Shown here: piece by piece, positions 17,144 through 51,795 of the stretch | How the letters are laid out: each line of letters starts with the position of its first letter | Numbering within the stretch: the first letter of the stretch is position 1 | Assembly (NCBI GenBank): GCA_951406725.2 | Contig: OX597816.1 | Location: forward strand, 100,502,001 to 100,566,000 | DNA from: Octopus vulgaris | Lineage: Eukaryota | Direction of reading: 5' to 3' | Length of the DNA stretch: 64,000 bases | The notes under the pieces: generated by a model | The model's input: only the letters and a program-made list of their open reading frames with translations | What the model was told of the DNA's origin: nothing | Databases searched by the model: none | Program-made: the position numbers and the translations under genes

Positions 17144-17355
17144 ACCTTTCCATTTTCCCAAGTGCCAAACTAATACACTTGCTTGTTGTTCCTACACCTG
17201 TCTTTGTCTTTTGTTTTCTATAAATTTGAACTTCATATATATATATTAGAGGGAAAAGGACAACAAAAGCCAAGGCAGGATGAGCATCTCAAGTCACTTA
17301 GAATATTTAATCAGAGTAAGGTGAATGTGAGGTAATTAATTAATCAACTATTGGA

Positions 17356-17433
17356 TGTCCTATAGCTGTTTCTGAGATATCCCAAGTGATAGGTTAGCAT
17401 CTCCATACACTGGGTATTCCGTCATCAGAGACA
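17356..17433 (-). ncRNA. Type-I minimal hammerhead ribozyme, left arm of the palindrome
   Basis: Minus strand TGTCT-CTGATGA-CGGAATACCCA...TGGGATATCTCA-GAAA-CAGCTA-TA-GGACA. Confidence 0.72.
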
Positions 17434-17743
17434 AGGTAAATATGTATGAAAATTCCAGACAAGGAATTCACAGTTTATACAGGAATAAAATGGTAGATAG
17501 AGAAATAAAGAGTAAAACAGTACATGGAAGAATATGGAAGGAGATAAAACGGTAGATAGAAGAATAGACAGGAGAATAAATTTCACAGCTCATCTTCCAA
17601 ACCCTCTGGAAGAAGATGAGCTGTGTACTTTATTCTCCTGTCTGTATTCTGTTATCAACTGTTTCACTCCTTATTTTTCTATCTACTATTTTATTTCTTT
17701 ATAAACTGAAATCCCTGACTAGAACTCTTATACATACTCACCT

Positions 17744-17815
17744 TGTCTCTGATGACGCAAAAACCCAGTGTATGGAGATGCTAACTTGGGATATCCCAGA
17801 AACAGCTGTAAGACA
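17744..17815 (+). ncRNA. Type-I minimal hammerhead ribozyme, right arm of the palindrome
   Basis: TGTCT-CTGATGA(17749-55)-stem II-GAAA(17799-802)-CAGCTG-TA-AGACA: intact core, 5-bp stem I, palindromic stem III, GUA triplet. Confidence 0.8.
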
Positions 17816-18149
17816 TTCAATAATTAATTAACTGATTATTTCATTAATTAATTCCCTCAAATTCATCTTACTCTAACTAAACATTCTAACTGACTTGAGA
17901 TACTTGTCCTGCCTTGGTTTTTGTTGTCCTTTTACCTTTAATATATACCTACTAACTTGGAAGCCTACTACAGATGACCACTTATAGCACTTACATAGCA
18001 TACCTATTCATTTAGATCACCAGTGAACCCCTCATATTCTATTATATGTATGTATGTGTGTGTACACTCTCATATGGGAAGAGAGAGACAAATGCAGGTA
18101 TATCAAATTATCAAATATTATACAGTATAAATTTTTTATTTATTAACAT

Positions 18150-19190
18150 TAACTCCACCTTTGCATTGTGTGTCATAATTGCCATATGCCAATTAAGACC
18201 AGCTCCATATGAGAAGGGGAGATAATTTCAAAACTTCTCAAAAGTTGACATGCCAATTAGAAAAATGACAGGTCTATTGCCTAGAGATAAAGAGGAGATC
18301 CAAGGTCACATTTCTCTGTCTCAATAGGTGTCATAAATACAACAGTCATTCTACTTCATCTTCAACAGGAAAGGGTCACAGACACAAAAAAAAAGCGAAA
18401 GCATTTATGGCTTAGGTAATTTGTGTAAATTAAACAAAATGTGCTAAGAGAAATATTTCTGAGTGACCAGTGGTATGAATTTGAACAACATAAACAATTA
18501 CTGGTATATCATACACCATACCAAGTAAATTCCCCATTAATTAAAATTATATCTCTCTTGAGGAGGTGCCATAATTATCAAATGGCAAATGAAACTAGCT
18601 CCATAAGTGTAGAGCAGATAATCTCAACAATCAGGAATCCTCTAAATTTGATATGCTATCAAGGAAAAGAACTCACTTATTGTCTGAAGAATGCAGTAAG
18701 CTTCTTTTACTCAAGTGTGGGAAAGAAAGCGAGGAGCAACTCCTCATAATCCATAAATTTCTAAAGTGACATAGGTTTCCTATAAGTCTCCAGTACTTCC
18801 TTAAACTAAACTTTGATCATTTTTCTCAGCAAATCCTATTTTAAATTATTTCAAACTATTGGCATGCAGACTATATCAAAGATCATTACTTGCTTGACCT
18901 AAAGTTTGGTAGTTCACACTTCAGAAATGTTGTTTTCTGGGCATTTCTACTCAATAGTGCAACTGAAAACAGTGCCATTTATTGATATCTAAAGAAGATC
19001 AGAAAAATGTTCCACAAAGTGATAGATATAAAAATGTTCTGTAGTCAACTAGTATCTATCATCTCTTATTCAATTGATTTTTGCTTCAATTTCTGACAGA
19101 CTGCTTTTGTTCAGTCTTTCCAAATTTTTTCAGCTTTGCATTACGTCTCTCTCAATTTCTCTCAGAGTTGTAAACATATTTCCATACTCA
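18150..19190 (-). mobile_element. Decayed L1/Tx1-like RT relic
   Basis: Minus strand KPMSL*KFMDYEELL (resembles RPISLLNxDYKIL), GSPLYL*AID and HFSDL; many stops. Confidence 0.45.
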
Positions 19191-19614
19191 TTCACAAAAA
19201 TACATACATGTGTGCATATGTACAGATAGTCACTCAGTGTGTGTGCATATATAATCCTACATAGTATATGACACATTCACACAGATATTAAAGTAAATAT
19301 ATATGTGAACATACTGGAGATATTGTTAATGTGTACATATGGCTATGTTAACCTAATAAAACTTTCAATAAAAGCATTTAATGGAATTTTTATATTTCTA
19401 TAGGATTAACCCTGATTCTTCTTGGAATTATACAAACATTCATATCTAGAAGTAATTTTTTTTTTAGTGTAATTAAACTTAACTTGATTATGAATTTATT
19501 TTCTTCTAAACTTGATGGTATTCAAGTGAAAAAAAAGAATCAGTTAAATTTCAGATTAGTAAAAGATGTTAAAAATACATGCACACACATACATACACAC
19601 AAACATCCTCAATA

Positions 19615-20072
19615 GATGCCAACACAGCTGTGTGGGTAAGGAGTCTGCTTCCAACCATATGGTTTCAGGTTCAGTTCCACAGTGTAGCACCTTAGGCAAG
19701 TGTTTTCTACTATAGCCCAAGAGTGATCAAAGTCTAATGTGTGGACATGGTAGATAGAAACTGAAAAAAAAGCATGTTATATGTATGTATACATGCATAT
19801 ATGTGTATGAATGTGTTTATGCAAGTGAGTTTGTATTCCCCTTCATCTTCATGTGTATTAGCTGATTGTAAACAATGGCCTCACTGTACATTTCCTTGTT
19901 CATTTCAAAATCTTGTTTGGATTGTTTGTTGTTCAGTAGACTGTGAGATTATTACTTCACTTGAAAACAGGTTGGAGGTGACATTATGAAGGGCATCAGG
20001 CCATTGAAAACTCTACACTAATCATCACTTGTCCAAGCATGTAAAAGTAGAAGCTAAAACATTGTTGATGCT
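19615..20072 (+). mobile_element. tRNA-SINE with an RTE-like 3' tail
   Basis: GGTTCAGTTCC B-box, ACCTTAGGCAAGTGTTTTCTACTATAGCC core, GAAGGGCATC tail. Confidence 0.7.
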
Positions 20073-23000
20073 ACATACACACATATATTGAATGTAAAAT
20101 GCATTTTGCAGAGGCTCTATGGAAGTCTATGTGTGTTTCAAACATTATATAAAAAGCACCTTTTAAAATTATTATGCTCTAATATTTATATAATCCACTG
20201 TGAAAAACAGCATTCTCTGCTGGATTCATTTGTTTTATTGCTTATTGTGATTAACAATTTTTACTTTAAACTGAGACTAATTTCTACATTTCTTTAAGAA
20301 TGTGTTTGAAAAAATTTGGCCTTGAGATTTTTTGCATTTCTCCATCATATGATAACCGGAAAATGTATGATTGGGTTTCCCCACCAAAAAACATCTCTAT
20401 TGTCTTTTTATGTGACATCAAAATGCTGAAATTCTAGAGTACTATTGGAGGTACTTAATAAAGTAAATGGTAAAACCTGAGGCAAGTAGTATTGGTTTGC
20501 ATTGGAAGTTGGTGATTGTAACGAATTCAAAAGTGGAATATATTTGTTTGCTATGAAGAAGCAAGACTGACATTTTGGGTTCTGTTTTTCATCAGAGCAA
20601 TGTTTTCTGATTCTATCAGATGAATAGATAAGAAGTAATTGATTGATTTTCCCTTAGCTAGTTTGACTCTAAATTTTGCCAAAGCCAATTTTGTTTTCTA
20701 CTCTTTCAGGGTTATTGTTGTTTAACTCCAGGTCAGCCCTGACCAATCAAATCTATAATCAAAATAATTTCAGCCATCTCTTACGCATTGAGTATCCATG
20801 ACTACCTTACCCTGTGTGACGTTACTATTACTGTACTGTAACTATTATTACTATTGCATCAAGTCTTACAAATTTACATAAGTTTATCTTACAATATACA
20901 CTTATGTTGAGAGGCGGTAGATAGAAATAGATAGACAGATAGATAGAAAGGAGAGAAAGAGTGAAAGACATTTGAGAAATGTTCACTGCACATGTATGTG
21001 CAACAATTTTGCCAGCTCTGATATTTGAAACCAAGGATGTGAATATTGACAAAATATAGTTACTTATAATCTAAATTTATCAATTCTGTTTCCATGCATT
21101 ATTGACAATAACGATTTCTGAATGTGTATAAACCACAACTAATCTAATGTTTTCGTTATTACGTATATTATCTTACATGTTATTACTTTGGTATTCAGGC
21201 TTTCCTATTGTTGAAAATTTTGTTTTATTAACTTCAGTTGTTATTTATAGATACTTGATCCTTTTATGACTTTGAAGAGAAAAACTCATTTCTTAGTTCA
21301 ATCATTCAGATAACTACATATTCTTAGATTTCTAATCTCCTAACTGGAACCTTATTGGCAGTTTCTTTACAGTGTTCGTTTCTGAGAATTAGATAAATAC
21401 TTAGGGATTAGGAGAGTTTTATTTCTGGTCATGTTCGCATTCTGTCAAAAATCTGGGTTGATGCAGAATATAAAAAAAAGATAACATAATTCAGAAAAAT
21501 ATGATGGTTAAAGGAAAAGGCTGAGAAAATCTTTCACAAACCTGAAATGGCAAGAAGTTCAGATTTAAAAGAGCAAATGTTCATTGTAAGAACTGCCCCA
21601 TTATCAAAAATCAAGTACAACCTAATTTTTTATAAATGAATACTTAAGAACCAATGAGAATAAGAGTCAGTAGTTCCAGCCATAATTCAGTATTGGTTAT
21701 AGAACTATGAAATAGTACAAAATGTATTGTTTTTCTATTTTGCATTCAATGCTAACTGTATTAAAATATTTTCTATAATAGAAAAAATATATTAAATTGT
21801 AAAACAAAACAAAAATAAGAAACAAATAGTAGTTGATAAAATGTTAGCTGTGAATTTTTGTTTTATATCTTACATTTTTTTCAGTAAATGAATTTTTTCT
21901 GTTCATGTTTTTTTTTTCATTTGAATTATATCTTTGACCTAATTTTCTTATCTTCTTTGTGCTTGATTTTAATTTTTTAAATATTCAAACATTGCCAAAT
22001 GTTGAAAATCTTTTTGGAAGAGAAATTTTGCCAGGCTTAATAGATTCTGTTATTTTTTTAATTATAAATTTGTTTTATTCTTTGGAATGTATTATAATCA
22101 ATCAGATCAATTTGTCATTAAAAGGCTAATTTCATCACTTCACTACTTTTGTTGCAACAAATTAGTCTCTGCTATATCGTCTTTTTATGGAAAGTTCATA
22201 AAAAATTCCTAATCTGGCCTAAATTTTATCTATGACAATATCTTTAATCAGTCCTGTTAACATTTTCTATTAGAATTAAAGCTCTTGTTCAATGTAAAGC
22301 TAGAATAATAATAAAATATATATTCACTCATATCATCATCATCATCATCAACAACAACATTATCATCTGTGATGTATATATTGATCTACATGGCCCTTTA
22401 TAGATTAGATATGTTGAGAAAATGATCTCTCTTAAATCAATTGTTGCATATGCTATTAAGAGTTTTGCTGTCAAATATACAGTGGATTTAGTTAAGGTCA
22501 TGTTCCCTAATAGCAATGCTGCCATAATTAATAAATAGTTTCTTGCATGGTAGTGGAAATAGTTTATGGCATATATCTGTATATGTTAATGAGCAGTGAA
22601 AACAAAATTTTTTTACTGGTTCAGATTGATTTGCATCTGCTAGAAAGTTCTGGTTAAACAGATTTAACTGATAGACATGTTGATGCTACTAATCTATATG
22701 CATTGTAATAATCACTGTTTGAAATATATTAGTCATCATATAAGACATCTAAAGTTTTTTTAACATGTATAAATATTAATAAAACAATAATAGTAATAAA
22801 TTAATTTACAATTTATTTATTTTATAAAGTAGTTTTAGTGTTTGAACTTCAGTTATATAGAGCATGCATTCTAGACAATTTCACATCTCACCTTGTCATT
22901 TATAAATTATCAAATTTGCCCAAATTGTAAAGAAATGTTGGTATTTATATATATCACAACAAACCTTTTAAAAGACTTGTATGACCCTTGTTACATTCAG

Positions 23001-23279
23001 TTGAAGAAAATTCAAATATGCTTTTTGATTGCTATTGGCATCAGCCATGGTTTACTTGACTGGTGAAACCTCTTTTTGCAAATACTGATAACATTTTAAT
23101 TGTGAAGACAAAATGTTCAGTAGTCTACCAATAGGACACCACCAACAGCAAGCAATAAATCATTAATCATCATTTTACTGTTCTCAGACTTGACTTTGCT
23201 TAGGAGATGACTACTGAAGCAAAATTGAATATCCATGCTGCCTTTCAGGCAGTAAATCACCTTTCCCCCACCTCCCACC

Positions 23280-23330
<51 letters not shown>

Positions 23331-24051
23331 GCACACGCACCAACACTCACACACACAGGGAAATTCTTGAATTAGTGATCAAGGAGACCTGCATTTCAAA
23401 GATGCCCCTGTAAGGATTATTTTGACAACTGTAGAGCAATTAGTAATATTTTGTAGGTTTATCATTTGAGCAAAGAATCTCTGCTTTCACTAATTCAATA
23501 GGTCTTTAGAAACAAAAGCTACTGAATTTGCAAACACAATCATTTCAGAACATTTCTTTTGTGATACAAATGTTTGGAATCAATTCGATTCATAACAGTT
23601 ACAATAATTTCTTCATGAAATATGAAATGAAAGGCTTAGTGCTAGAATTGTCAATTAAACATCACTGCATGCTAAATGACAACATGCACAAATAATTTTG
23701 TTTCATAATCATATAACAGTTTATAAGTATATATATATATATATATATATAAAATTCATTAAAAAATATACTAAAATTTTAAAAAATTATACAAAGATAT
23801 ATAAACTTACAAGCAGAAAATAGATTCCTAATTAAATCAATGATAATAAATTATGCTAAATTATAAAAATGAATTGATAACTAAATGAAAACTGCTATCT
23901 ATGAAAGATACATTTCCAATTATCTCTTTAAACATTTTCAAACACTTGAGTACAAATATGCAAATGTATATCTAGACATAAAAACTCTGTATACCTTTAC
24001 ACATGTATGCACATCCATGCATTTATGTATGAACAGATATGTATACGCATA

Positions 24052-24250
24052 TCATCATCATTATCATCTAGCATTTATTTTCTATGCTGGCATAGGTTGG
24101 ACTGTTTGAAAAGAGTTGGCAAGCCACAGGATTGTGCTAAACTCTACTGTTAGCTTAGGCATTGTTCCTATGGCTGGATGCCTTTCCTAATGCTAACCAT
24201 TTTAGAGTGGGAGATTTTTACATGGCACCAGCATGGCGAGGTCACTAAAT
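24052..24250 (-). mobile_element. RTE 3'-end fragment
   Basis: (CAT)n-like tail followed by GGTTGGAC...GGCTGGATGCCTTTCCTAATGCTAACC. Confidence 0.7.
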
Positions 24251-24921
24251 AACTTCCAAAAACCCCTCACCTAAAAAGGGGAAAGACATTGAGAGTGGTG
24301 TTTTGTGCCAGATAATGGCTATGGTAGAGGGACAGAAATAAGTATTGTGTTGAGGAGGAGATACAGGATTACCCACATTGGAAAGAGAGAGAGAAAATGG
24401 TAGTGGAGATATGCCAGGGAATCCCCAAAGTACAAGGAGGTGAATGTAATGTAAATGAAGTGTTACAGAGAGCTAGACAGGGTGAGTGAACAAAGAGTTC
24501 ACAAAAGAGAGGGAAGGAGAAGAGATGCAGTGAATGGTGAACACAGGTGAATAAGGGAGTGACAGGATGGCAATGATACAGTTGCCAGTGGGTGGGCATT
24601 GAGCTGCTGAAGCAGAGGGCAAAAGACTACCATAGTGCATGATAAGATGTAGTTTGCTTCATTTGGGGGCTGGGTGATTACTCTTATGCCTACCTTTTCT
24701 CATAGACATTCATATGTACATACATTTATAAATACGTCCCCATATATGTTTAGATATAACTCAGTACAACTTTTATAACTATATACAAAACATATATGTA
24801 TACCTTAACACATAAATCTATGTGCATTTATACACATGTATTCACATACATATGTCTATGCTCATATTCTTACATATATATACTCATATATCCATTTACA
24901 TACCTCATATACTTTCATGCA

Positions 24922-24965
<44 letters not shown>

Positions 24966-25097
24966 TTATTGAATTAGTGAAAATAGAAATTCTTTGCTTA
25001 AACAACAAATATATTTATACATGTGTATGTGTGTATGTATATGTAACTTTATAAATTTATATATATGTGGGGGGTATGGATGTGTCCAAGTGTTTGT

Positions 25098-25134
<37 letters not shown>

Positions 25135-25556
25135 AGAGAGAGAACACATTTTAGGTTTAATAAAAGTATAAAATATATTTTATATTTAATTCAAAGTGTA
25201 GTGTAATATATTTGTATATAAACTAATACAAATTACAAATATTTTCATTAAGGTTACAAATAATTTCTTGTCTTAAATTCATTCATCATATTCTGTTGTT
25301 TATTCATTTCTGCCAAATTCTGAAATGATAAACTGTTTCACTTCTGTTAAGATAAATAAGTCTTAGATGGCAGAAATGAGTTATTTTTCCCTTAATGAGG
25401 GAATGGAATAAATACATGGAAAATAAGAAAAGGGTGAGGGGTGCATAAAGTAATGGAAGAAAGAATACAAAAAAGAACAGAAGTGAAAATAAAGTAACTG
25501 CAAAGCATGAATATGTTAACATATGGATATGAAATTTTATGTCCTTTCACTATATA

Positions 25557-25768
25557 TTGATTTCAAATTTTGGCACATGGCCAGCAAGCTCAAGGAAGGG
25601 GTAAGTCAATTGCATCAACCCCAGTGATTCAACAGGTACTTATTTTATCAACTCCAGAAAGAAGAAAGGCTGAGCCAATGATGGCAGAATTTGAACCCAA
25701 AACATAAAGGATGAAATGATGCTAAGTATTTTACCTGGTATGCTAACAATTCTGGCAGCTCGCCACTA
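25557..25768 (-). mobile_element. SINE, same family as 10156 and 38308
   Basis: TTTCAAATTTTGGCAC...GGTACTTATTTTATCAAC...AACAATTCTGGCAGCTCGCC. Confidence 0.8.
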
Positions 25769-27239
25769 TATATTATTATATATTAAGAGAGGATTATGGT
25801 TGCAGAATCACTGTTGAATTTTCCTTCAGTCATGTTTATGTATTATTTATGTATCCCCATCAATGCTTGGTTTTAAATAAGTGATCTCTGGTTCATAAAT
25901 TATAGCTTCTGCATTGCAAGACTTATTTAGTATTCATGCTTCTGCGTGAGCTTTTAGCTTCAATAATATACTACACACACACACACATACAGAGAGAGAC
26001 CAACTGACAGACAGAGACACATACACACAAGTACACACACTATATACAAACATACTGTTTTATGCACTTACTGGAATTTGCTGTTTATGCTATGACATTA
26101 GCATGTTTTCTGCCAGCCACTGTTTTAAGTTCTTTAGATCTTTGATATTCTTTGAAATGTTTCTATGCAAAATATAATCTTTGTTTATTTTCAAAGAATC
26201 TCAAATTAACAATGAGTAATGAGAATGAAGCAGTGCAAAGGACATAACAGTATTCAAACTATAACCTGTAAGATGACAAGGTCAAAATTTATCAAATGTC
26301 AAGGAAAAGAAGTTAATTTGTGAAAAACTTAATGCTGGAAATTACCAAAATCAAAATAAAATGAAAACAATGAAATAATGGGTTGTTTAAAACTAACTGA
26401 GCCATTACTAATCACATGAGACTTCATCATTAGTGACAAAGAAACCACCACATAAAGCATTTCAATTATTAATGAACATTAGGGACTGGCATAATCAAAG
26501 TGTCTAATTTGAGATGATTCATTATTTGCTTGATTTCATTTATAGCTTTGATAATTTTTTAAGTTTCTGTTAAATCAATTTACCATTGCATTTGTGCATT
26601 GTTTTGTTTATCAAAAGAAACACATGATTATCTCCACTGTTTGATCAGTCGTAGTCTGTCTTCACTTTGGCTGAGATTTTGATGGTGTCATACATCTTGG
26701 GTTAAATTATTCAAGATTGCCTCATTGAAAGCTTTTGGTTTCTTTTTAGTCCGGATAGCTTTTTTAAAGAATGTTATATAATTCTCTATTTCTCTCATTT
26801 ATGCTTAATTGTTCATTACTTACATCTATGGCATCTTGTTTAGAAATTAAAAATTTTAGTAGTTGTCATAAATTATCTAACATTCCACTTGTCTTAACAT
26901 GCTTTTTGTGAAAAGCAGCATCTTGGTACCATTTAAATCTATGATAAATTATTTGTCTAGTTTTTTAATTAATTTAGTTGCCTGTTATAATTACTTTTTA
27001 GGGTGATTTTATTCAGGTGAATTTTAATATAAATGAAATGATTTTGCTATTTTTCTTTGTGACTGTGATGTCATATGTTCTGGTATGCAGTGTCAAATAC
27101 AAAATATTTAAATATCTAATTTTAAGTAACTATCTCACTTTTTGGGGAAATTTTCTGTAACATATAAAATAAATCAGCATTGTGCACAGAAGCTAAATGA
27201 CCTTCTGCTGTTCAGCTCTCTTGAGAGTTTCCTTACCAC

Positions 27240-27480
27240 TATATGGTTCAATGGTTAGGGTGCTGCACTCACAATTGCGAGATCATGGGTTCAATTCCAA
27301 GACCGGGAATTGCATTGTGTTCGTCATGACATGTGGCACATGTACAGGTAATGTCCATTTGATGAAGGGAGTGAGCTTATGTGTACACAAACATTTGATC
27401 ACTATAAACAAATCATCTGTGTGGTTGTTCAGTAAGAAATTGTCGAACCTTCATGTGTTGTCTAATGACAGGAGAGTCCA
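27240..27480 (+). mobile_element. Internally deleted tRNA-SINE
   Basis: TGGTTCAATGGTTAGG A-box and GGGTTCAATTCC B-box; tail resembles that of the 41.8 kb SINE. Confidence 0.6.
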
Positions 27481-27489
27481 TCATATATA

Positions 27490-27525
<36 letters not shown>

Positions 27526-27754
27526 AAAGTACACGTGAGGATATAAACCTTGGAGGGATAAAAATATTCATGATTAAACTGGTTGAATACCTAACAATAT
27601 AGGCACATACATATATGTTATTAATATTATAAAAACCAAGAGAGAAGACGAAGATAAGATTAATAAAAGTTTGTTAATACATTGACAAGACTTGACCTAC
27701 AATTGTTTCAATTCATCAGTTGCAGCATTAAATCAACGAAATTCAAATTAATTT

Positions 27755-28211
27755 AATTAAAACAATTTGGTTAATTACTACAAGTAAGAATATCTTCAGG
27801 AAATGACGTAAAAAAAATGTATCATAATTAAAACATAATGAAGACATTAAAAAGGAAGAATACAGTGCACCATTAAAGTTTAAAATATATACACAAATAA
27901 AAAAAGACACAGTTATAAAAAAATACTTATAGTCATATATCAATATAAATAGCAATCATGATAATGCAGACATACCAATTCATATTTTTGCATGGCTATG
28001 TCTGCATTATCATTATTGCTATTTATATTAATTTATAACTATAACTATTTTTTTATAACTGTTTTTATTCATGTATATATTTTTAACTTTAATGGTACTC
28101 TGTAATCTTCCTTTTTAATGTTTTCATTATGTTTTAATTATGATAAATTTCTTTGTACGCCCTTCCCTGAAGATATTCTCACTTGTAGTAACTAACTAGA
28201 TTGATTTAGTT
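27755..28211. repeat. ~460-bp imperfect palindrome
   Basis: Centre ATAATGCAGACATA / TATGTCTGCATTAT (27961-28010); outer TACTACAAGTAAGAATATCTTCAGG / CCTGAAGATATTCTCACTTGTAGTA. Confidence 0.92.
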
Positions 28212-28219
28212 ATATTTTA

Positions 28220-28231
28220 TATACATACATG

Positions 28232-28262
<31 letters not shown>

Positions 28263-28420
28263 GTATATATGTATATATATATGTATATATGTATATATAT
28301 ATGTATATATATATGTATATATTTATATATATATGTATATATTTTATATATATGTATATATTTATATATATGTATATATTTATATATATATATATATATT
28401 TATATACATATATATATATG

Positions 28421-28465
<45 letters not shown>

Positions 28466-28715
28466 TTATATACATATATATATATGTATATAAATATATA
28501 TATATGTATATATTTATATACATATATATATATGTATATAAATATATATATATATGTATATAAATATATATATATATGTATATATTTATATACATATATA
28601 TATATGTATATAAATATATATATATATGTATATATTTATATACATATATATATATGTATATAAATATATATATATATGTATATATTTATATACATATATA
28701 TATATATGTATATAG

Positions 28716-28786
<71 letters not shown>

Positions 28787-28795
28787 CACACACAA
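28220..28795. repeat. Compound (TA)n microsatellite/minisatellite
   Basis: TA runs with recurring GTATATATTTATATACATATATATATATGTATATAAAT units. Confidence 0.95.
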
Positions 28796-30040: not shown

Positions 30041-30085
30041 ATATGTATGTATGCATGCATGTACATACATACATATAATATATAT

Positions 30086-30127
<42 letters not shown>

Positions 30128-32959
30128 CTTAGAAGAATTAAAAATACTTTTGCATGGCTTTATAAACACTCATTTCTTTCTCTCCTCTCTCTCTTTCTTT
30201 CTCTCTCTCTCTCTTCTCTCTTTCTTTCTCTCTCTCTCTTTCTCTCTCTGTATATATATATATATATATGCACACACACACACACACACGCATATATGAA
30301 TGAGTGGACAAATGAAAGAAAAGGGGGTACTCAAAGCATTAGTAAGATATACATGTTTTATATAGACACACATGTGTGTGTATCTATGTATGTATTTTTG
30401 CTTATGAAGAACAAATTGGCAATTAGATTTTCAGTAGAAATGGTAAGGAATTATATGTACTTACATACAAATGAAAATATATTCTAAGAATATATGAGTA
30501 CATATACAGAAGAATGTTCCTGTTATTATGTCTTGTAAGAAACCTTAGAGACCTAAAGAGACATATACAAGTTTATGAAGTACTGTTAGAAGTTTACAAG
30601 GAATCTTATTGATGTTAAAACAACTCCAGAGATCATGCAAAAAAGATTTTAGATGTTTACAAGGCCTTGTAAAGGAAACTAGCAAATATTTTTATGTTCA
30701 TGATTGTGGTTATAGGCAGGAGTATTCAAATTTTGCAGTGTGGAAGATACATATTTGCCATTTGAAACACAAAAACTGCAATGGAATCATGTTAGTTACT
30801 AGGTTGCAAATGGTGCGTCAAAAGTTTTGACACCAAATAAAGTAAAGTTAAGTGTCTTTGTGTGTTTTTGAATTACTATTATTTGTCTTCCACACTGTAG
30901 TTGTTTTAGTTTTAACTCACCATCTTGGATCAAATTGCTTTCCTGGTAAGTACATCTCTGAAATTCAAATTTTGGTCTATCCTCTTAAACAAATCATTTA
31001 CCTATTGCCTCAATTGCTCGAAGTTTAAATAAGTTCAAAATTTCATGGTTTGTAACTCCTCAAATATTCTAATTTATTGATCTATCTGAAAATTTGTATT
31101 GTAAAATGAAAGAAAAATAGAGAAAAACATGAAGGAAACCAGATGGACTAGAAGAAGGATAATATTACAAACTTTGTTAACCAGCAAACCCAAATAAATG
31201 ATCATTAAACTCTGTGTGAAGGCATTAATGTAAGTTTACATGATAGAGGAGGAATGCCCCTAAATCAGTTCAGTCATAAGGAAGAAGAAAAAATTTAAGA
31301 GGTTGTAACAAAAATAGTAGATTCTATGAAATGGAAGTTAGTAGCTTCTTTTTTTTTTTTTGACAAAGTTTTACTGTGTAAACATTAAAGGTATTCAAAT
31401 ACATAAAACTTGACCTAAGTTAAACAAGTTCTAGTGCAGAGTATCGTAAAATAATTGTGAAATGCTTCAATAATGTATCTAGCATACCTACCTGTTTAAG
31501 TTCTGAAAAACTACAGGAAAGTCTCTATTTCACAATGCTCTCATGGATCTGCAATGGTATTCACCAAATATTTTGTCCATGACAGCATCTGCAAATCATG
31601 GATAAACCCATGACCTTATGAGTTAATATTGAAAATTTGACAATATCATACATCACAATATAAAAAGCAAACTAGGTGTTAATGACATGCTAGTTGAGAA
31701 TTATTATATGTAAAAGGAAAAGAAATACAAGAACATCTCTGTGAAATTACTTCCTCTATCAGAAACAGCAGCTCAATCTTTCTTAAATTACACTTTGTTG
31801 TTAAAGACAGGAGCAAATTGACTAATCTGTTCCTGGGTACCCTATGTTCAAGAAGCAGATAGGATGGCCATTGCTAGAATGTCTTTGATCATAGGTTTAA
31901 TTGACGATGGTTGGTCTGCAATAACAGTACTATGTATACTGTTATTACAGTATATTGTTAGTGAGCTATGGATTCAGTGAATAAGTCTTTACATATAATT
32001 CCACTCATTATCATATACATAATGCATACTAAATTTCTTCTCTTGTATTCAATGAATAAAATCTTTTAGTGTGTATACTCAGTGAATATAAATATTTCCT
32101 TTGTGGGGAAATAGCCAAGGGGATCCCAGGTTAACACTATTCTCTATATTTATTTCTTTTCCAAAGTGAATTGGAGCTAGTCAAACACAATCTCAAATAG
32201 TAATAGCTGTGTTAAAATGTCTGAAAGCCAGTAATATCTACATAGTTTTTCTTTTCCTTTCATTATTCTACTTCCTTCCTCCTGTTTTTCCCACTTCTGT
32301 TCTTTACTTTCTCTTCCTGCATCCTCAGTCACATAACTTCCTGTTTTATTTCTTTGAAATTAAACCATTTAATCCACTATTTCTTTCCCCTTCTTCATTA
32401 TCATATTAATTCTTGTACATTATCTAGCTTCATTTCCGATACTCAATATATTTTGCAGCTTCAGTCTTTCTGATAACTATCTTCTATCTTTCTTCCTATA
32501 TCTCCTACCTAAATGCTTGTCTCATTCTCTAATTATTCTCTACTTTCTATTTTCCCCCATGTAAGTGCATATGTATGCATATATGTGTGTGTGTATGTGG
32601 TGTATGTGTGTGTGGTGTGTGTGTGGAAGTCATTGTTTATTCATCTATGGTACACTACATATTTTCATTTAATATATTTTAATTAATGTGTCACACAGTA
32701 CAATTTATTAAATTTTAGGTGTGAAAATACTTATTTTACTACAGAAATAATTAAAATCTAAAAAAATATAAATACCTATTGGCCGCAGAAACCCACGATA
32801 TTCTGAAGATTTGTGATATAATTTAGCCAGAGGAATCTGCAGTGTACTGAGGGCACGATTGGTGAACCGTGATATGGCGAGTGGTTACTGTATTCATATT
32901 CATATTTGTATATATTCATATGTATGTATCTATTATTTGTACTTGTGCATTAGTGTTTG

Positions 32960-33120
32960 TGTAAAAGCACCCATGTGGTGCCCTGTAAAAGCACCCAGCA
33001 CACTGTAGTGATTGGCATTAGGAAGGGCTGTAGACTGCAGTCTGGTACAGCTTGCCACCTCTGGTCGAACTCTCCAGCCCATGCCAGCATGGACAATGAA
33101 CATTAAATGATGATGATGAT
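32960..33120 (+). mobile_element. RTE 3'-tail fragment
   Basis: TAAAAGCACCCA...GGCATTAGGAAGGGC...CCATGCCAGCATGG...TAAATGATGATGATGAT. Confidence 0.75.
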
Positions 33121-33170
33121 ATACATATAGTAATAATAATGATAATAATAATAATAATAATAATAATAAA

Positions 33171-33725
33171 TGCCCTGATGCAGTACCAAACAGTGGCTCT
33201 CATGGCTTCTGATCTTAACTGATTGGAAGTGTTATCATGTACATTGTTTTGTCTTGGTATAAAAGATGGGCTACAGCAAATATTCTGCTCAATACCACAG
33301 ATTTACTTGTTAGTTGTTTGACCTTAACCAGTTGACCATGTCCCTTAGTGTCTGACGATATGTGCATCTCTGATCATGAGCAGAAGTAATGGGGGAGTAT
33401 CATAACCATGTGTTGACAGGAATTCGTAGAGGTTTGGATAATTGACCTTTGGAAACATGGGTGGTTTGTTCAACATCCTTAAACAATCCTTATTCAGGGA
33501 CCTTCTGAGCGGGATGGGTGACTTAACTAGATGAAAATTTTAACTGGGCCCCACCTGCAAGGTCATGTGTTGTTTATCTTGATATGAGATCACCATGTCG
33601 CACACATATGGTTGTGATGCATGTGCCTGATGTACCCTTATCAGATGGGTAGTTATGATGGGTATACTGGGCTTTGTATATTTTGCCCCAGTGTCACTTT
33701 GATGGCATGCACTGCTCTCTCACTC
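33171..33725. mobile_element. ~555-bp non-coding element inserted in an (AAT)n microsatellite
   Basis: Discrete GC-richer block flanked on both sides by (AAT)n. Confidence 0.65.
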
Positions 33726-34324
33726 AATAATAATAATAATAATAATCCATGGATGGGATTTATAAATGTTTTGATGCATTGTTACATGCATGGCCATGAG
33801 TCACATGTTAAGATCATAGTCCATATTCCTGAAATGATTACGGTGCAGTCCATAGTATCTATGGACATTGGGTAGATCATGTTCATGAATTCATTTCTTT
33901 GGGCAATATATATATATAAGCATATTACATTGAAAAAACAAGAGTAAATTTTTATATTATATCTTCATGCATCTTAGACATTTTCTCGTGATAACTTACA
34001 AACATACAAACATTCCTATCCCTGCCTCTATAGGTTCTTGTACATCCATGTCTTCCTCAAAATTGAGAGAACACTAATAAATGTGCGTGTGTTGTGTGTA
34101 TTAGGATTTTGTTTTAGCATATCAATACTATTAACCAGTTGTTGGAACTCAATATGCTTATGCTTTAAGGTCAACTACCAATTGAGAACAGAGCATAATA
34201 TCTATTAACAAAGACAAAACAGAAGTTATGTAATCACTTTCATTAGCTTAAAGCTCTTTCTGCTATAAGAAGCTTGCTCACAGAGCTGAATGCTTGTGTG
34301 ACATCTTTAAATGATATATGTGTG

Positions 34325-34357
<33 letters not shown>

Positions 34358-34422
34358 GTATGTATGTGTGTGTGTGTGTGTGTGTATGTATATATACATA
34401 TATATGTGTGTGTGTGTATATA

Positions 34423-34472
<50 letters not shown>

Positions 34473-34559
34473 CATCTGCATATATATATAGATACATAGA
34501 TACACACACACACTTATATATATACACACATATATACACACACACATATATATACACAT

Positions 34560-34608
<49 letters not shown>

Positions 34609-34611
<3 letters not shown>

Positions 34612-35794
34612 GGGTTGGACAAAATAATGGAAGCACTTTTAATATTCAAACATTTATTTTAATATGAGGTAGGACTGCCTTTGGCAGTAATTGCTGCTTG
34701 GATTCTTTACAAAGTTTGAATTATTTCCAAAGGGATTTTTGTCTATTCTTCAGCTAAAACAGTTTGTTGTTCGTGTAATGATGATGGTGGAGGATATTCA
34801 CTCCTTACTTGTTTTTCTAAAATACACCATAAATGTTCAATAATATTAAGATCTGGGGACTGTACTGGCCAGATAAGATGTTCAACTTCACTAGAATGTT
34901 CTTCATGCCATTTAGTAACAATGTTAGCTGAGTGAATTGGTGCATTATCATCCTGAAAGATTGCGTTTCCCTCCAGAAACAGTTCCGCAACCATAGCATG
35001 AATTTTGTCAGATAAATGCTTAAATAATCTTGACTATTAATTCTACCATGAAAGGAAACTATTAGGCCAGCAGATTTCCAAGATATAGCCCTCCCGCTAG
35101 ATCATCACAGATACTCCTCCATGTTTAACAGTTGGAAGAAGGTAGTCTGGGTCAAATGCTTCTGTTGGCTGTCTCCACATGTATACTCGGCCGGTGGTCA
35201 GAAATAGGTAAAGGATCACTTGTCCGAGAAAATAACATTCTTCCACTGCTCTGGGGACCAGTTCTGTAGGTTTTTACTCCACTTTAAATGCTTTGCAACA
35301 TTTGTTTTTGAAAGTAGTGGTTTTCTGATTGCAGCCCTCCTGTGGAATCCAGCTTTGTGCAGCTCCAGGCAAACAGTTTTTATGGAAACTGAGTGCTTGA
35401 GGTGGTCATTAAGCTCAGCAGAAATTTTGGGAGCTGTACTTTTGTGATCCTTTCTAACAATTCGCGTTCCCTACCTGAAAGTTTTGCTTCAACGAAGAGG
35501 TTTTTCCGTCTTTCACAAAGGCTGTCATTACTTTTGAGACAGTACTTCTTGATACGCCAAACATTTCAGTTGTTTTCGTTATGCTAGCACCTGCCATACG
35601 AGCACCAACAATTTGACCTCTTTGAAAGTCCGATAGATCTGTCATTTTAATGAATTTTAATTGCCTTTTTCTGATTAAGCAACACTAATAATAAATCAAA
35701 AAACAAAAATAAACAAGCTTTTGATGGTTTTATAGATATTTCAAAATTATGATGCTATGATGCTAGGTGTTTCAATTATTTTGTCCAACCCCTA
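34609..35794 (-). mobile_element. Full-length Tc1-family DNA transposon with a disrupted transposase
   Basis: TIRs CATGGGTTGGACAAAATAATGGAAGCAC / GTGTTTCAATTATTTTGTCCAACCCCTA, flanked by TA. Peptides MTDLSDFQRGQIVGARMAG, VIFSDK-like, FQDDNAPIH and WPVQSPDLNIIEHLW. Confidence 0.95.
34660..35645 (-). pseudogene. Tc1 DD34E-type transposase pseudogene
   Basis: ORF fragments 35454-35645 and 34743-34994 separated by frameshifts and stops. Confidence 0.9.
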
Positions 35795-36085
35795 TATATA
35801 TATACCCCCACACATAAGATTCGGTTGAATTAAGTACTTAAATTGAGGCACCTCATTAGGTCAGAATAACATGCACACACAACAACAATATTATGCAAAT
35901 ATGAAACATAAGTACTGGCCAGATGATATTCCTGCAGTGTATGTAGATAATTAGACCCAGCTGAGTGGAGAAATCTTCTCTTGAGCTGTTCAGACATGTA
36001 CATTATATTAAATATATGACCCATAATATTTACAAAGGAAAGATTCCAAGATAGATGAATAAATATAAATGAGTAACAGTTGTGA

Positions 36086-36441
36086 TGTAGGTGTCAATTC
36101 ATTATGGCTATTTCTAACAACTCCTTTAATTGATTAATGTAAACATTACAGTATTGCAAAGAAATCGTTTTCATCAGATAAATTCATGAACTTCAAAATA
36201 AAGGACTTTGGAAATGATTTAACATAGTTAAAATCTATGTAGCAAGAACAGTTAGTGATTCTGCTACTATTTCAGTTGACAGAAATCCATGGATTATAAC
36301 TATATTAAATCATTTCAAATGTCCTTTATTTTGAAATTCAGGAAATCAGTGGATGAAAACAGTTTCTTTACAATGATGTAATGTTTTCATTAATCAATTA
36401 AAGGAGTCGTTAGAAAAGGCTGTAATGGATTGACACCTGTA
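36086..36441. repeat. ~355-bp imperfect palindrome
   Basis: AGGTGTCAATTCATTATGGCTATTTCTAACAACTCCTTTAATTGATTAATG / CATTAATCAATTAAAGGAGTCGTTAGAAAAGGCTGTAATGGATTGACACCT; spacer about 36240-36287. Confidence 0.93.
36097..36183 (-). ncRNA. Hammerhead-like motif, left arm of the 36 kb palindrome
   Basis: Minus strand ATTTAT-CTGATGA-AAACGATTTCTTT...AAAGGAGTTGTTA-GAAA-TAGCCA-TA-ATGAAT; stems I and II pair. Confidence 0.62.
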
Positions 36442-38307
36442 CCTCTACTATTACTCATTTATGTGTGTGTGTGTGTGGATCAGCATGCATGCAGTTGTCA
36501 TTTACTTACTTTCTTTCTATTAAATTCCATTTGCAAGGATTTGGTCACTTTGTGGTTACAGTTAAAGATACTTTCACCAGATATTGCAAATTATGATAGA
36601 ATTCAGAATTACGTGGTTATTAAGTTAAATTTTGAACCATGTTGTTTGACTTGAGCTTATGTCTATTTAATTTAATTGTTCATGCATTCATACACATGTT
36701 TGTATATTTACAGAAAATTTTGTATATACATGTATGTGTGTGTGTGAGTATGTGTAGATATGCCTTCATGTCATGTATTATGGACAAATTAGCCATCCCT
36801 CCTATTTGTCGCTGTTTTTTAGTCTAGGTCAGTCTTGTTTAAAGAGACATGTGACCAAAATATTTCTAGTCACACTCATCCACCTGTTTTGCATATCAGG
36901 AACTACATGAGGCCCAATATATCCTTAATATTTTGTAGATTTTAAGGATGGGATTTGAGAGAAATTTAGCTCATGGATGAGGTGAATTCAACACAGCAAG
37001 CCAACAAACCACTTATAAATTTTAGTTCTGTCACATCTAGCATTGATTAATTTCTTTTTCTTTTGTTATCTGTTTTTTAGGTATGTAGACATAGGTCATT
37101 TGAGAATTGTCTTAGCTGCCAACCATACACTTCATGTTTATATACATGTGTGTATGTGTATATGCATACATGTGAGGGTGTATGTATAATGTACATTAGA
37201 ATTATAGGAAACTGTTAAAATTATAATCAACTAGGTATCACTGTGTTAAGATCCAATGGAGCCAAGAATTTATTTTGACTAAACTAGTTAAACTGTTATA
37301 ACTACTTAATATAATTTTCAAAACCACAACTGCTATCTCTGTTGTAACTGATGCCAACTTCTAATTTGGATGATTATAGAACTTATATTTTGTGTCTGTG
37401 TGTTCTTTGTATTCTTCCTGTTGTTGCTACTTCATCTTTACGTACTTATTTTTGGAATTGTGTCTCATCATGCTCCTCTCATCATGTGGTTGAAGTTTGA
37501 ATATCAGTCTCAAAGAAGCTAACTGTAGTATTTTGACTTCATGATTAGAACTCCAGCCTCACACTGTAACCTACCAACAAAACTAAAAGCAAAAATGTTG
37601 ATTGATCATTATAATGACTACTGCTTTACAAAAGGAACATTTAGATTGGAATAAATCAAAAACAGGTGAATCTCAACAGATATTAATTTTTATGATGCTC
37701 ATTTAAAATATCATTCACACAACATATAAACTGTGAACATTTATAAGAGATATAGGTAGACAGAAACTACTAGCAAACGGAATATTACTTTTGCTACTGT
37801 TTCCTTTTCTTCTAACAGGAAAAAAATCATTAATCTTTACATTCTATTCCATCTTGACTTCTTTACCATCTTCAGCTCACCAAAATAATTCACACAGACT
37901 CCTCAATAGATGTATATGCATCTGTGCACATATATTGATTCTGAATATACACACATCTTACTTCCACATCTCTTTTACTATCTGCCAGCATCTTAGCTAT
38001 ATCAAGTCTCTGAGTCTTCCTCCCTTTCTCTTTCAAACGTATTAAAACTTGGTCCTAAATATTAACTTACAAACCTTCCATTTATATCTACAGATACACC
38101 TAAACATAAATATGTAGACACACCAATGGGTAATGTGTTACTTTATATACTTACAAGAATCAATGCACTGACTCCTACTCATAAGAAAAATTACAGCTAT
38201 ATTTGTAACTGTTTCATTCAGTCACAAATGATAAATTAAGTTATATGTATCTGCTATTGTCACTCATTTTTGTGAGCATATTTTTAAGTGTGTATGTGTA
38301 TGTATGT

Positions 38308-38509
38308 GGAGGCGAGCTGGCAGAAACGTTAATATGCCGGGCGAAATGCATAGCCGTATTTCGCCAAGGTCAACTTTGCCTTTCATCCTTTCAGGGTCGA
38401 TAAATTAAGTACCAGTTACGCACTGGGGGTCGATGTAATCGACTTAATACCTATGTCTGTCCTTGATTGTCCCCTCTATGTTTAGCCCCTTGTGGGTAGT
38501 AAAGAAATA
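38308..38509 (+). mobile_element. CpG-retaining SINE (MetaSINE-like domain)
   Basis: GGCGAGCTGGCAGAAACGTTA head and GCCTTTCATCCTTTCAGGGTCGATAAATTAAGTACCAG core. Confidence 0.85.
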
Positions 38510-38639
38510 TGTATATGTATGTATGTGTTTATGGGAGGGGGGGTAATTTTTTCTTACAGAAGCAGTTGTTATGATAATGCTTTTATTATCACACATACAT
38601 ATACACATATGTTGTCATTTCTTCATGCCTTATAACTTT

Positions 38640-39055
38640 CATCATCATCATTCAGCGTTTGCCTTCCATTCTAGCATGGGTTGGACTGTTCAACTGGGGT
38701 CTGTGAAGCCAGAAGGCTGCATCAGGCCCAGTCTGATCTGGCAGTGTTTCTACGGCTGGATGCCCTTCCTAACGCCAACCACTCCGTGAGTGTAGTGGGT
38801 GCTTTTTACGTGCCACCCGCACAGGTACCAGGCGAGGCTGGCAACGGCCACGAATGGATGGTGCTTTTACATGCCACTGGCACGGGGGCCAGGCGAGGCT
38901 GGCAACGGCCACGAACGGATGGTGCTACGTGTCACCGGCACGGGAGCCAGGCGAGGCTGGCAATGGACCCGAACGGATGGTGCTTTTACGTGCCACCGGC
39001 ACGGAGGCCAGTCAGGGCGGCGCTGGCAGCGGCCACGATCTGATGGTTCGCTTAC
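38640..39055 (-). mobile_element. RTE 3' UTR fragment with about 4 tandem units
   Basis: Highly similar to 53182-53480. Confidence 0.9.
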
Positions 39056-39427
39056 TTTAATTATGTTAAATTAAATGAAAATGATGCACATTAAATATAT
39101 TTTCATCCTAACTGTATATTTAAAAATATATTATATACATATTTTGTTTAAATATCATTTTATATTGGTATAGATGTGGAATTGTAGGAACACTGTTGTG
39201 ACATTCTTTCTCCCCCCCTCTTTCTCTCTCTCTCTATATATATATATGGAGTGGTTGGTGTTAGGAAGGGCATCCAGCCATAAAAACCAAGCCAAAACAG
39301 ACACAGAAGCTTGGTGCAGGTTCCTCTCAAACCGTCCAACCCATACTCATTGTTCTATGTTTTATATATATAAAACATATATAACTTATATTTAACTTAT
39401 ATTTAATCTTTCTATATGTAATTTTTA

Positions 39428-39612
39428 CAGTAACAATACAGAAAAGTAAAGCTAATTTGCCAAAAGAGTGTTGGCAAATATATGGACACAGACTGTGTCG
39501 ATAGCCAGCTGGAAAAGATGTTTTCCTGGGGCTTAAACAACAGTAACATTGTCGTTTATAGGACCGCCACACTCTGTTGGCATATTAGCTTTACTTTTCC
39601 GTATTGTTACTG
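39428..39612. mobile_element. 185-bp MITE with ~45-bp TIRs and TA flanks (Tc1/mariner/pogo type)
   Basis: TA|CAGTAACAATACAGAAAAGTAAAGCTAATTTGCCAA...TTGGCATATTAGCTTTACTTTTCCGTATTGTTACTG|TA. Confidence 0.8.
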
Positions 39613-39629
39613 TATATATATCTTGCTGA

Positions 39630-39673
<44 letters not shown>

Positions 39674-39896
39674 TACTAATAATATCCAAACATGGCAGTT
39701 CTATGTTTTATCTTATATTTAATCTTTCTATATGTAATTTTTCTAAATGGTATAATTTAATTTTTCATTATTGAATTGATAAAAGGTGGTTTCTTTTCTA
39801 ATTTATTATATATATATATATAATATTTTTTGTGAAATTTGATTTAGTATTTCTAAATTGAATTTCTCCCTGTAAGTTTGGAATAATATTCCCACA

Positions 39897-39929
<33 letters not shown>

Positions 39930-39941
39930 TAATAATATCCA

Positions 39942-40221
39942 AACATGGCAGTTGCCAGCGCCACCTGACTGGCGTCAGTGTCAGTGACACGTAAAAGCAC
40001 CAACCGATCGTGGCCGTTTGCCAGCCTCATCTGGACCCTGTGCCGGTGGTACGTAAAAAGCACCCACTACTCTCACAGAGTGGTTGGCGTTAGGAAGGGC
40101 ATCCAGCTGTAGAAACACTGCCAGATCAGACTGGAGCCTAGTGCAGCCTCCTGGCTTCCCAGACCCCGATCGAAACGTCCAACCCATGCTAGCATGGAAA
40201 ACGGACGTTAAACGATGATGA

Positions 40222-40224
<3 letters not shown>
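39942..40224 (+). mobile_element. RTE 3' UTR fragment with a (GAT)n tail
   Basis: GTGGTTGGCGTTAGGAAGGGCATCCAGCTGTAGAAAC...GGACGTTAAACGATGATGATGAT. Confidence 0.9.
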
Positions 40225-40264
<40 letters not shown>

Positions 40265-40774
40265 ATGAGAAATAAAGGTGAAAATGCGGAAAAAATATAT
40301 TAAAACTAATCAAAATTTAATTATATTTCGAAATATAAAAGTACACTTGACAGGTTTCGCATTGGATTTTCAAGTGTATGGGGCTGCGTTGCGAATTGTG
40401 TCTATTCTGACCGTTGTTTTAAAAATAGCTTGTTTTTTTGAAGTAGGAATATGGCTCAGAATGTTGTATGTATGTATGTGTATGTGTGTATATGTATGTA
40501 TGCATGCATGTGTGTATGCATATACATATATACACGCACTCACATAAACAGACGTACACACACGCAAACATATATACATGCAAAAAGCTTCTAAAATCCC
40601 TTGTAGTTATCTCCCTTATCTCATATTTCCTCCAAATATCTATCCAATTCGCACTTTCAGTTTCCACCGAGCACGATCTGTAAGAGGCTTCAAGCATGTA
40701 GATATACATCATCGTTCTTCCACCGAGATGTGCCATATATTTATGTATCAATAGTACGCTTATATGTGAGTGTG

Positions 40775-40805
<31 letters not shown>

Positions 40806-40894
40806 GTATATTTGTGTGCGTGTGCATATAAATATGTATATGTGTGTGTGTGTGTATATATATATATATAGTGAAGGCGCGTGGCTTAGTGGTT

Positions 40895-41025
40895 AGGTCA
40901 TTTACACACTTATTGCAGTGGCCCTTCAATTTTTCTAAGCCCTGTAAAAGAATATGGAAAGTTCGGCCTCCCACCAGGCCTTTTACGACACCCTTAAAGC
41001 CAGGAACATTTCAGCACCCCCTTGT
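40895..41025. mobile_element. Partial mariner-type MITE, same family as 60945
   Basis: TTTTCTAAGCCCTGTAAAAGAA...CCCTTAAAGCCAGGAACATTTCAGCACCCCC. Confidence 0.7.
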
Positions 41026-41330
41026 GTATGTGTATATATATTATAAATATAGGTGCAGGCATGGGTGTGTGGTTACGAAGCTCACTTTGCAGCCACATAG
41101 TTTCTTGTTCGCCCCCAGTGAACAAGACCTTTCTGAGAGTAAGTTTGATGGACACAAACTGCTTATCAAATGTTTGTGTGTGTGATATTTGGGACTGATG
41201 AGTATATGTCAGTTAGCGTGATGATGTGCTGAGTAAAGCACTGGCACAGTTTAGGCTACCTGCTGTCATCCGCTGTTGGGGTGTATTTCCTTTAGATCTA
41301 CATCAAGAATTCCGCAGTGCTAGTTGAGAT

Positions 41331-41585
41331 AATAATCGATTAAGTAAACAGAAGATGGAATTGGTATAACTCTTTATTTTGTACGACGATCGTTTCGACC
41401 CATCCTGCGACTGCCCTTTATGGGCGGGACGCTGTGCATCATATTATGTTGCATCAGTCTTGCAGTCTGGGGTACATTCATACATTAAGTGTTGTCTCGC
41501 TAAAGATCTTGAGTTTGGGCAGAAACGATTGTCGTACAAAATTAAGTTATACCAATTCCATCTTCTGTTTACTTAATTGATTATT
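41331..41585. repeat. Inverted repeat with ~70-bp arms carrying hammerhead 3' halves
   Basis: AATAATCGATTAAGTAAACAGAAGATGGAATTGGTATAAC..TTTTGTACGACGATCGTTTC / GAAACGATTGTCGTACAAAA..GTTATACCAATTCCATCTTCTGTTTACTTAATTGATTATT. Confidence 0.9.
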
Positions 41586-41598
41586 TTATCTCTCTCTC

Positions 41599-51748: not shown

Positions 51749-51795
51749 ATGTATATATATATATACATATACATGCATGTATATATATATATATA

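Follow-up and report, generated by a model that had tools for sequence, protein, structure and literature searches.

A 64,000-nt stretch of the Octopus vulgaris genome (assembly GCA_951406725.2, contig OX597816.1, positions 100,502,001 to 100,566,000; the whole of it is called the window here) contains four long palindromes with outward-pointing hammerhead ribozyme motifs in their arms. These raise the question of whether such palindromes are mobile units in their own right or are left behind by some other process. A prior reading made from the letters of the window (the sequence-only reading) took them for retroelements that have no open reading frame (ORF), are bounded by their ribozymes and are mobilised by the reverse transcriptase (RT) of Penelope-like elements (PLEs). 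In the analysis presented here the PLE connection is kept and the mobile unit is given up. Each palindrome is best read as two 5′-truncated, hammerhead-bearing 3′ ends of one repeat family placed head to head, and is likely a one-off, dead scar of a PLE insertion, a reading to which a probability of about 0.86 is given.

The elements are designated F1 (17.2-17.9 kb, in window positions), F2 (27.8-28.2 kb), F3 (36.1-36.5 kb) and F4 (41.3-41.6 kb). All four inverted repeats were recovered by self-alignment of the window, with arms at 17240-17548 and 17629-17947 (F1), 27750-27954 and 28017-28216 (F2, whose pairing extends inward to a centre near 27978), 36065-36239 and 36288-36462 (F3), and 41326-41402 and 41516-41592 (F4). 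The arms of different elements share only microsatellite or chance matches of 14-25 nt, which bears out their description as unrelated. The outward motif of GAAA, 6-nt palindrome and TH is found at 17799 (+ strand, CAGCTG), 27709 (- strand, CAATTG; outside the F2 left arm, as had been described) and 41396 (- strand, CGATCG), and the CGGCCG that had been inferred for the third element is present in the majority sequence of the F3 family. The upstream CTGANGA reported for three elements occurs in F1, F2 and F3; the F4 family has the variant core CTGATGT, which is deleted in the window copy.

The pattern GAAA-C-palindrome-G-TH occurs three times in the window, each time inside one of the four elements, compared with a mean of 0.415 in block-wise dinucleotide shuffles of the window, 2 of 200 of which reach three sites. 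A looser pattern that allows any 6-nt palindrome gives six sites, three of them outside the elements. Strict and loose hammerhead descriptors find one window site each and miss the F1 right arm. The hammerhead family is absent among the 150 listed of 225 Rfam matches to the window; the long stem II probably escapes the Rfam hammerhead models.

In the 2.80-Gb assembly (227 contigs) the arms of the four elements are 3′ ends of four different dispersed families, with candidates at first look numbering at least 1,400 for F1, 149 for F2, 1,001 for F3 and 722 for F4, all lower bounds. The 30 best of 40 scored loci per family, less six duplicates, form a set of 114 loci that includes the four in the window; since the best-scoring loci were taken, proportions in this set are biased toward long, well-kept arms. 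In all four families the proximal 3′ end is fixed, and another end lies some 140-260 nt further on, the sequence between the two being referred to as the tail. The 5′ ends are variable in all four families, and the flanks are microsatellites, with (TA)n targets. Of the 114 loci, 49 have an inverted copy on their upstream side, placed 5′ end to 5′ end (F1 11/29, F2 7/28, F3 16/27, F4 15/30), and three have one downstream, in agreement with the outward polarity first noted in the window; in the remaining 65 the upstream partner is missing. The 41 close junctions give 208 within-family locus pairs, of which 8 match within 10 nt, seven of the eight in F3, and realignment of 11 F3 loci shows no two identical junctions. 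Measured from the proximal end, the predicted cut site is about 40-140 nt inward (137 nt in F1). Since the ends lie well beyond the cut site, the elements are not bounded by their ribozymes. A direct upstream pseudo-long terminal repeat (pLTR) was not seen for F1-F4, and no full-length source is present among the recovered copies.

The tail shows how the two arms differ. Of 43 two-armed loci, 39 have it on one arm and one arm only (six broken loci dropped; p 2e-8 against one half), and so do 35 of 39 close-junction palindromes (six far and four broken loci dropped). The one close-junction palindrome with two tails is F2 of the window, where the second tail is probably a microsatellite match. 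In the 35 one-tailed palindromes the tail is on the 5′-longer arm in 13, on the 5′-shorter arm in 19, and the arms are equal in 3; in eight of the 19 the tailed arm consists of nothing but tail, and the two arms do not overlap. In these 19 of 35 palindromes each arm has sequence that is absent from the other, and neither arm is a simple copy of its partner.

This asymmetry suggests priming on both target strands. In an in vitro study (Frangieh 2024, PMC11167929), cleavage and extension of both target strands by a PLE protein were found, with RT starting at two sites that bracket the tail. A twin-priming process, with one start site per strand and subsequent joining of two short cDNAs, is the likely route by which the palindromes arise. 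The GIY-YIG endonuclease of the element would cut both strands of a (TA)n target, and each cut end would prime RT at one of two fixed RNA sites, the proximal end or the tail end. Both cDNAs would stop early and be joined at short microhomologies. Two-strand priming with joining would place the 3′ ends and hammerheads outward and leave the tail on one arm only. The hammerheads would be part of the terminal repeat of the source elements and would decay after insertion, and a read-through transcript of the scar would fold into a long hairpin with a buried ribozyme, likely edited by ADAR. A literature search, which most subscription journals lay outside, gave nothing on point for long tails, a one-tail count or PLE twin priming.

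The four window elements show this anatomy in different states of preservation. In F1 the left arm (17240..17560, - strand) is an inverted, 5′-truncated PLE 3′ end with no tail, and its hammerhead (17356-17433, - strand) has intact core boxes and a broken stem III pair. The right arm (17589..17947, + strand) is a longer 5′-truncated 3′ end that reaches the proximal fixed end. It contains a type I hammerhead at 17744..17815 (+ strand), with the core at 17749-17755, the GAAA at 17799, a stem III palindrome and a predicted cut after 17810; the base of stem II is degraded in this copy. The F1 tail (17948..18035, + strand) is partly deleted, the family tail being about 140-190 nt. F2 consists of a long copy with a tail (27524..27980, - strand; hammerhead at about 27694-27803, with the core at 27793-27799 and the GAAA at 27709) and an inverted copy (27976..28216, + strand) that has the core box alone (28167-28173), its 3′ half being lost at a (TA)n array. 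F3 has a long copy (35810..36285, - strand) with a tail of about 255 nt (35810-36064) and a hammerhead at 36098-36182 (- strand), whose core is intact and whose stem III palindrome is lost through CpG decay; the inverted shorter copy (36286..36462, + strand) has no tail and a damaged core box. In F4 the long copy (41170..41521, - strand) has a tail of about 155-165 nt (41170-41334), the GAAA half at 41396 and a deleted core box, and the inverted short copy (41522..41592, + strand) retains the GAAA half alone.

The motifs are PLE-type type I hammerheads, in line with the sequence-only reading. With the core held open, the majority sequences of all four families take up the type I fold. A short stem I comes first, followed by the core box, by about 43-85 nt that make up the stem II region, and by GAAA; a 4-nt palindromic loop closed by 1 bp and then UH complete the motif. 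The F4 family has U at position 9. In unconstrained lowest-energy folds, which are 3-4 kcal/mol lower, the core is paired. Of the eight arms in the window, the F2 left arm is the only one that meets the strict descriptor. The F1 right arm keeps the boxes and stem III with a weakened stem II, the F1 and F3 left arms keep the boxes and lose the stem III pair or palindrome, and the other four have a lost or damaged box. Two intact ribozymes are found in none of the four palindromes. In the 114 loci both core boxes are retained in 55 arms, and in 32 together with an exact stem III palindrome. Decay is fastest at CpG sites (22-31%). The folded F1 transcript has its entire hammerhead paired with the opposite arm. 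In the sequence-only reading a transcript of either strand would be a long hairpin with a ribozyme; each transcript has one sense ribozyme, and that ribozyme is fully paired inside the hairpin. Because the partner ribozyme is on the opposite strand, a cis dimer cannot form. The ribozymes in the scars are presumably inactive. In a separate comparison, F1-related subfamilies (L263, L265, L261 and L268) keep the core, stem III and stem I and have a shorter or different stem II, a pattern of structural conservation across these subfamilies.

The arms are read as PLE terminal repeats, and F1 and F3 lead into PLE coding remnants. Longer F1 copies are about 1.6 kb and open with a GIY-YIG-type domain, now decayed, that follows an (AAT)n tract. 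A locus continuous with F1 at 68% (L262) runs from a GIY-YIG-type remnant through to the hammerhead, and the endonuclease remnant is likewise continuous with the hammerhead in L037. A sister subfamily of F1 (L261) adds RT to the endonuclease, and its RT and endonuclease sequences align to an 806-amino acid (aa) RT plus GIY-YIG protein in three blocks (E 1e-16 to 3e-32). Three of eight scanned relatives match GIY-YIG, one of them above the cut-off. In one F3 insertion an inverted F3 tail comes first and a remnant of the PLE thumb region next (E 4e-6 at best in tblastn, about 80 queries); this insertion has more than 2 kb of sequence common to other F3 copies, and the remnant is tied to the hammerhead through overlapping homology across copies and not by one intact copy. 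The tails gave no tblastn match to PLE proteins (nine loci). Since the junctions are locus-specific and the arms of F1 and F3 run into coding remnants, the palindrome is not the mobile unit, and the view of it as an ORF-less, ribozyme-bounded element mobilised as a whole is not supported.

Other coding sequences were considered as sources or links and rejected. A young PLE family has intact-looking 781-aa ORFs at many loci (for example L151:2745-5087 and L152:2842-5184), with RT and GIY-YIG and copies that are 95-98% identical. In 40 loci, matches to the F1-F4 family sequences were at microsatellite level or were F1 pieces outside the terminal-repeat position, so this family was set aside as the source of F1-F4. 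No hammerhead was found by pattern search in L151 or L152. PLE remnants near L053, L101, L011, L180, L256, L027 and L199 fail as links because they occupy the wrong strand, lie downstream or fall outside the insertion, and an endonuclease upstream of a microsatellite in L167 was rejected likewise. Separately, L270 has a helicase-like fragment (reverse strand, about 565-1110) that is possibly of Helitron type.

Several observations weigh against the interpretation as dead insertion scars of PLEs, beyond the bias of the locus set stated above. The F1 remnant itself has no Pfam GIY-YIG match and one homologue search was empty; its assignment rests on motifs and relatives. In a long F3 copy with a thumb-region remnant (L269, L242; G000:C4:7452656-7459400) no endonuclease was found in more than 2 kb downstream, and F3 may be an endonuclease-less derivative. 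No coding remnant was found for F2 or F4 in the examined loci, which include few long copies and in which F4 was traced about 1 kb upstream; the PLE origin proposed for these two families therefore comes from shared anatomy. In F3 the junctions are grouped around one internal hairpin: in the 11 loci realigned, the long arms begin close to a single short inverted repeat within the element, and their partners begin at -17 to -259. In addition, the ribozyme core has 76 mismatches in 1185 positions (6.4%), versus 1411 in 14877 (9.5%) in the flanks (p 3e-4). A core that is better kept than its flanks counts against pure neutral decay, although subfamily variation and search bias could produce such a difference.

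The clustered F3 junctions, the slight conservation of core positions and the lack of any ORF found for F2 or F4 would all suit an alternative, that of the sequence-only reading, in which the palindromes are non-autonomous, retrozyme- or viroid-like units whose transcripts undergo ribozyme cleavage and return to the genome in one piece through PLE RT. That the hammerheads are genuine and show a polarity also fits it, and a preprint reports an origin of animal retrozymes in the terminal repeats of PLEs (bioRxiv 10.64898/2026.07.22.740005). However, junctions differ between loci, ends are not at cut sites, more than half of the loci have no upstream inverted partner, many arms have lost a box or the stem III palindrome, and the single sense ribozyme of each transcript is fully paired. 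Non-LTR (long terminal repeat) retrozymes are described as head-to-tail tandems that give linear and circular RNAs cut by the ribozyme (PMC7229834; Cervera and de la Pena 2020), and no head-to-tail tandem array was found in the 114 loci, which are solo arms or head-to-head pairs. This alternative is thus highly improbable. Still less credible, to the point of being nearly negligible, is that the elements are miniature inverted repeat transposable elements (MITEs) or DNA-transposon remnants that have terminal inverted repeats, the hammerheads being a coincidence. Their palindromic shape and TA-rich flanks recall such elements, and a fifth palindrome in the window, described below, has no hammerhead. 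However, solo arms are common, centres vary, a long tail is present on one arm only, no target-site duplication is evident by eye in the four window copies, and the family majority sequences fold as hammerheads; for F1 and F3 the coding remnants already contradict it.

A closer rival retains the PLE origin and differs in how the second arm is made. In fold-back self-priming, proposed in PMC3846280, the second arm would be copied from the first cDNA or from an antisense template, and the tail would be trimmed at resolution. Junctions often lie at short internal inverted repeats, and 13 of the 35 one-tailed palindromes, including three window elements, have the tail on the 5′-longer arm, the outcome expected of simple copying; self-priming could explain the 13 to 16 cases where the sequence of one arm is included in its partner. 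The 19 palindromes with the tail on the 5′-shorter arm, eight of them with no overlap, would require extra steps. Fold-back copying is therefore considered unlikely as the general route, though a far more serious contender than the two preceding alternatives.

The palindromes can be compared with known PLEs. By its motifs and by eye, F1 fits the Hydra clade, which is defined by motifs that include RWK and DKT (Craig 2021, PMC8557442, section 11). Shared features are the CxCx5C linker, a CxxC before the conserved E, a CxH after N, the absence of CCHH, a YRD-type RT motif, a hammerhead and (TA)n targets. F1 departs from that clade in its long Asn/Thr-rich linker, in its hammerhead and in its roughly 1 kb of 3′ non-coding sequence. 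RWR and DKT motifs are present in a relative (P0041); the recovered F1 copies do not span that N-terminal part. A Nematis-like label for the F1 protein was rejected in favour of Hydra on the motif list of the same section. The supplement of PMC8557442 lists Hydra-1_Obim of Octopus bimaculoides, with a hammerhead unlike that of F1.

Endonuclease-positive PLE insertions have been described with a pLTR, an adjacent inverted 5′-truncated copy and an optional tail (Arkhipova 2013, PMC3846280; Craig 2021, PMC8557442). F1-F4 resemble these in having an inverted copy joined head to head at the 5′ end, strong 5′ truncation, microsatellite targets, a tail at one end only and an Asn-rich linker between RT and endonuclease. 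They differ in that the tails are about 140-260 nt, as opposed to the 30-40 nt published, and that most copies are so short that only the terminal-repeat fold-back is left. Opposite-strand hammerhead pairs 100-700 bp apart are reported from truncated PLEs of Schistosoma (Cervera and de la Pena 2014, PMC4209133). The minimal type I hammerheads of metazoan PLEs in that paper have, like those here, a short stem I, a 1-bp stem III with a palindromic loop and an extra base before stem II, and are mostly single motifs from truncated PLEs; however, stem II with its loop is about 43-85 nt here as opposed to 7-8 bp, and in F4 a U replaces A9. Animal non-LTR retrozymes (PMC7229834) likewise have type I hammerheads, a unit size of a few hundred bases and a link to PLEs, and differ from the head-to-head pairs with one ribozyme per strand found here.

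A role of the hairpins as substrates for A-to-I editing had also been suggested, and for F1 some indication of this was found. Contigs from three probable RNA runs of one study (the run type being guessed) and from one untyped run were compared with positions 17000-18100; no run recorded as RNA contains the F1 stretch. Most contigs over this region are paralogous, and five long ones with 3-6 differences appear locus-specific, to which differences were assigned through depth values. The three probable RNA runs show eight A-to-G sites on the + strand (17570, 17632, 17704, 17710, 17721, 17734, 17740 and 17902) that are candidates for A-to-I editing. All three runs carry the change at 17721; at 17710, 17740 and 17902 it is present in two. 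Other changes in the five contigs are one C-to-T, one C-to-G and no T-to-C, with six more differences unlisted. A-to-G thus makes up 8 of 9 transitions (p about 4e-4 to 1e-3), at a depth of 5-14 and without DNA of the same animals. ADAR has neighbour-base and mismatch preferences. A 5′ G precedes none of the eight sites, versus 36 of 152 local adenosines, and in the predicted hairpin six sites pair with U while 17721 and 17902 face C. Alleles or conversion between arms could account for the A-to-G sites. The F1 hairpin is likely edited as double-stranded RNA, on weak evidence from one locus, and the suggestion holds to that extent for the first hairpin.

In Porath 2017 (PMC5625713), heavy editing is reported for Penelope in lizard and Harbinger in Xenopus, and octopus is given a high double-stranded RNA potential while falling outside the repeat analysis. 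The hyper-edited palindromic or 3′-biased repeats of that study are comparable to F1 in that the long double-stranded RNA comes from one insertion by itself; unlike them, F1 is one locus without matched DNA. No paper on PLE palindromes as octopus editing substrates was found, most subscription journals being outside the search.

The head-to-head inverted PLE architecture is already published (Arkhipova 2013, Cervera 2014, Craig 2021). Thus F1-F4 are not a new class of element but new families of a known kind, and the parts worth following are the tail rule and the editing lead. The tail asymmetry offers a countable test of PLE integration, a step left open in the one in vitro study (PMC11167929). 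High octopus hyper-editing has been tied to double-stranded RNA potential, with no repeats named (PMC5625713). Since palindromic scars make their own double-stranded RNA, they are a directly testable candidate source of this editing. It is conceivable, although on balance doubtful, that PLE fold-back scars are a main source of the long double-stranded RNA for the extreme non-coding hyper-editing in octopus and that the rule of one long tail records twin priming from two RT start sites, one per strand.

The rest of the window is AT-rich with abundant microsatellites, and no Pfam match that would indicate a host gene was found in the 140 unmasked open frames scanned (171 are present). A separate, decayed PLE, F5 (14960..17239, + strand), has the F1 palindrome directly at its 3′ end. 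It includes an RT remnant (14960-15627), an endonuclease-like remnant near 15990-16270 and a short, very abundant hammerhead-like motif (17108-17146). Of the roughly 25 copies listed for this motif, nearly all have CTGTNGA as the core in place of CTGANGA.

The fifth short-spacer palindrome (39426-39614) belongs to another dispersed family, and no hammerhead was found in it. The association of palindrome and hammerhead in the window is therefore 4 of 5 and not universal. Its relatives in L002, L102, L230 and L023 are palindromic too, with different centres, and it is possibly the end of a hammerhead-less PLE type. Two wider inverted pairs (38631-40232 and 51613-53317) are each formed where a common interspersed repeat, itself containing subrepeats of 62 nt, is present twice, and represent further potential double-stranded RNA. 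Finally, at 14345-14520 (- strand) there is the end of a dispersed repeat, also found in L074, L185 and L158, in which a GAAA-closed hairpin is followed by a CTGATGA box, an arrangement that is possibly a permuted hammerhead.

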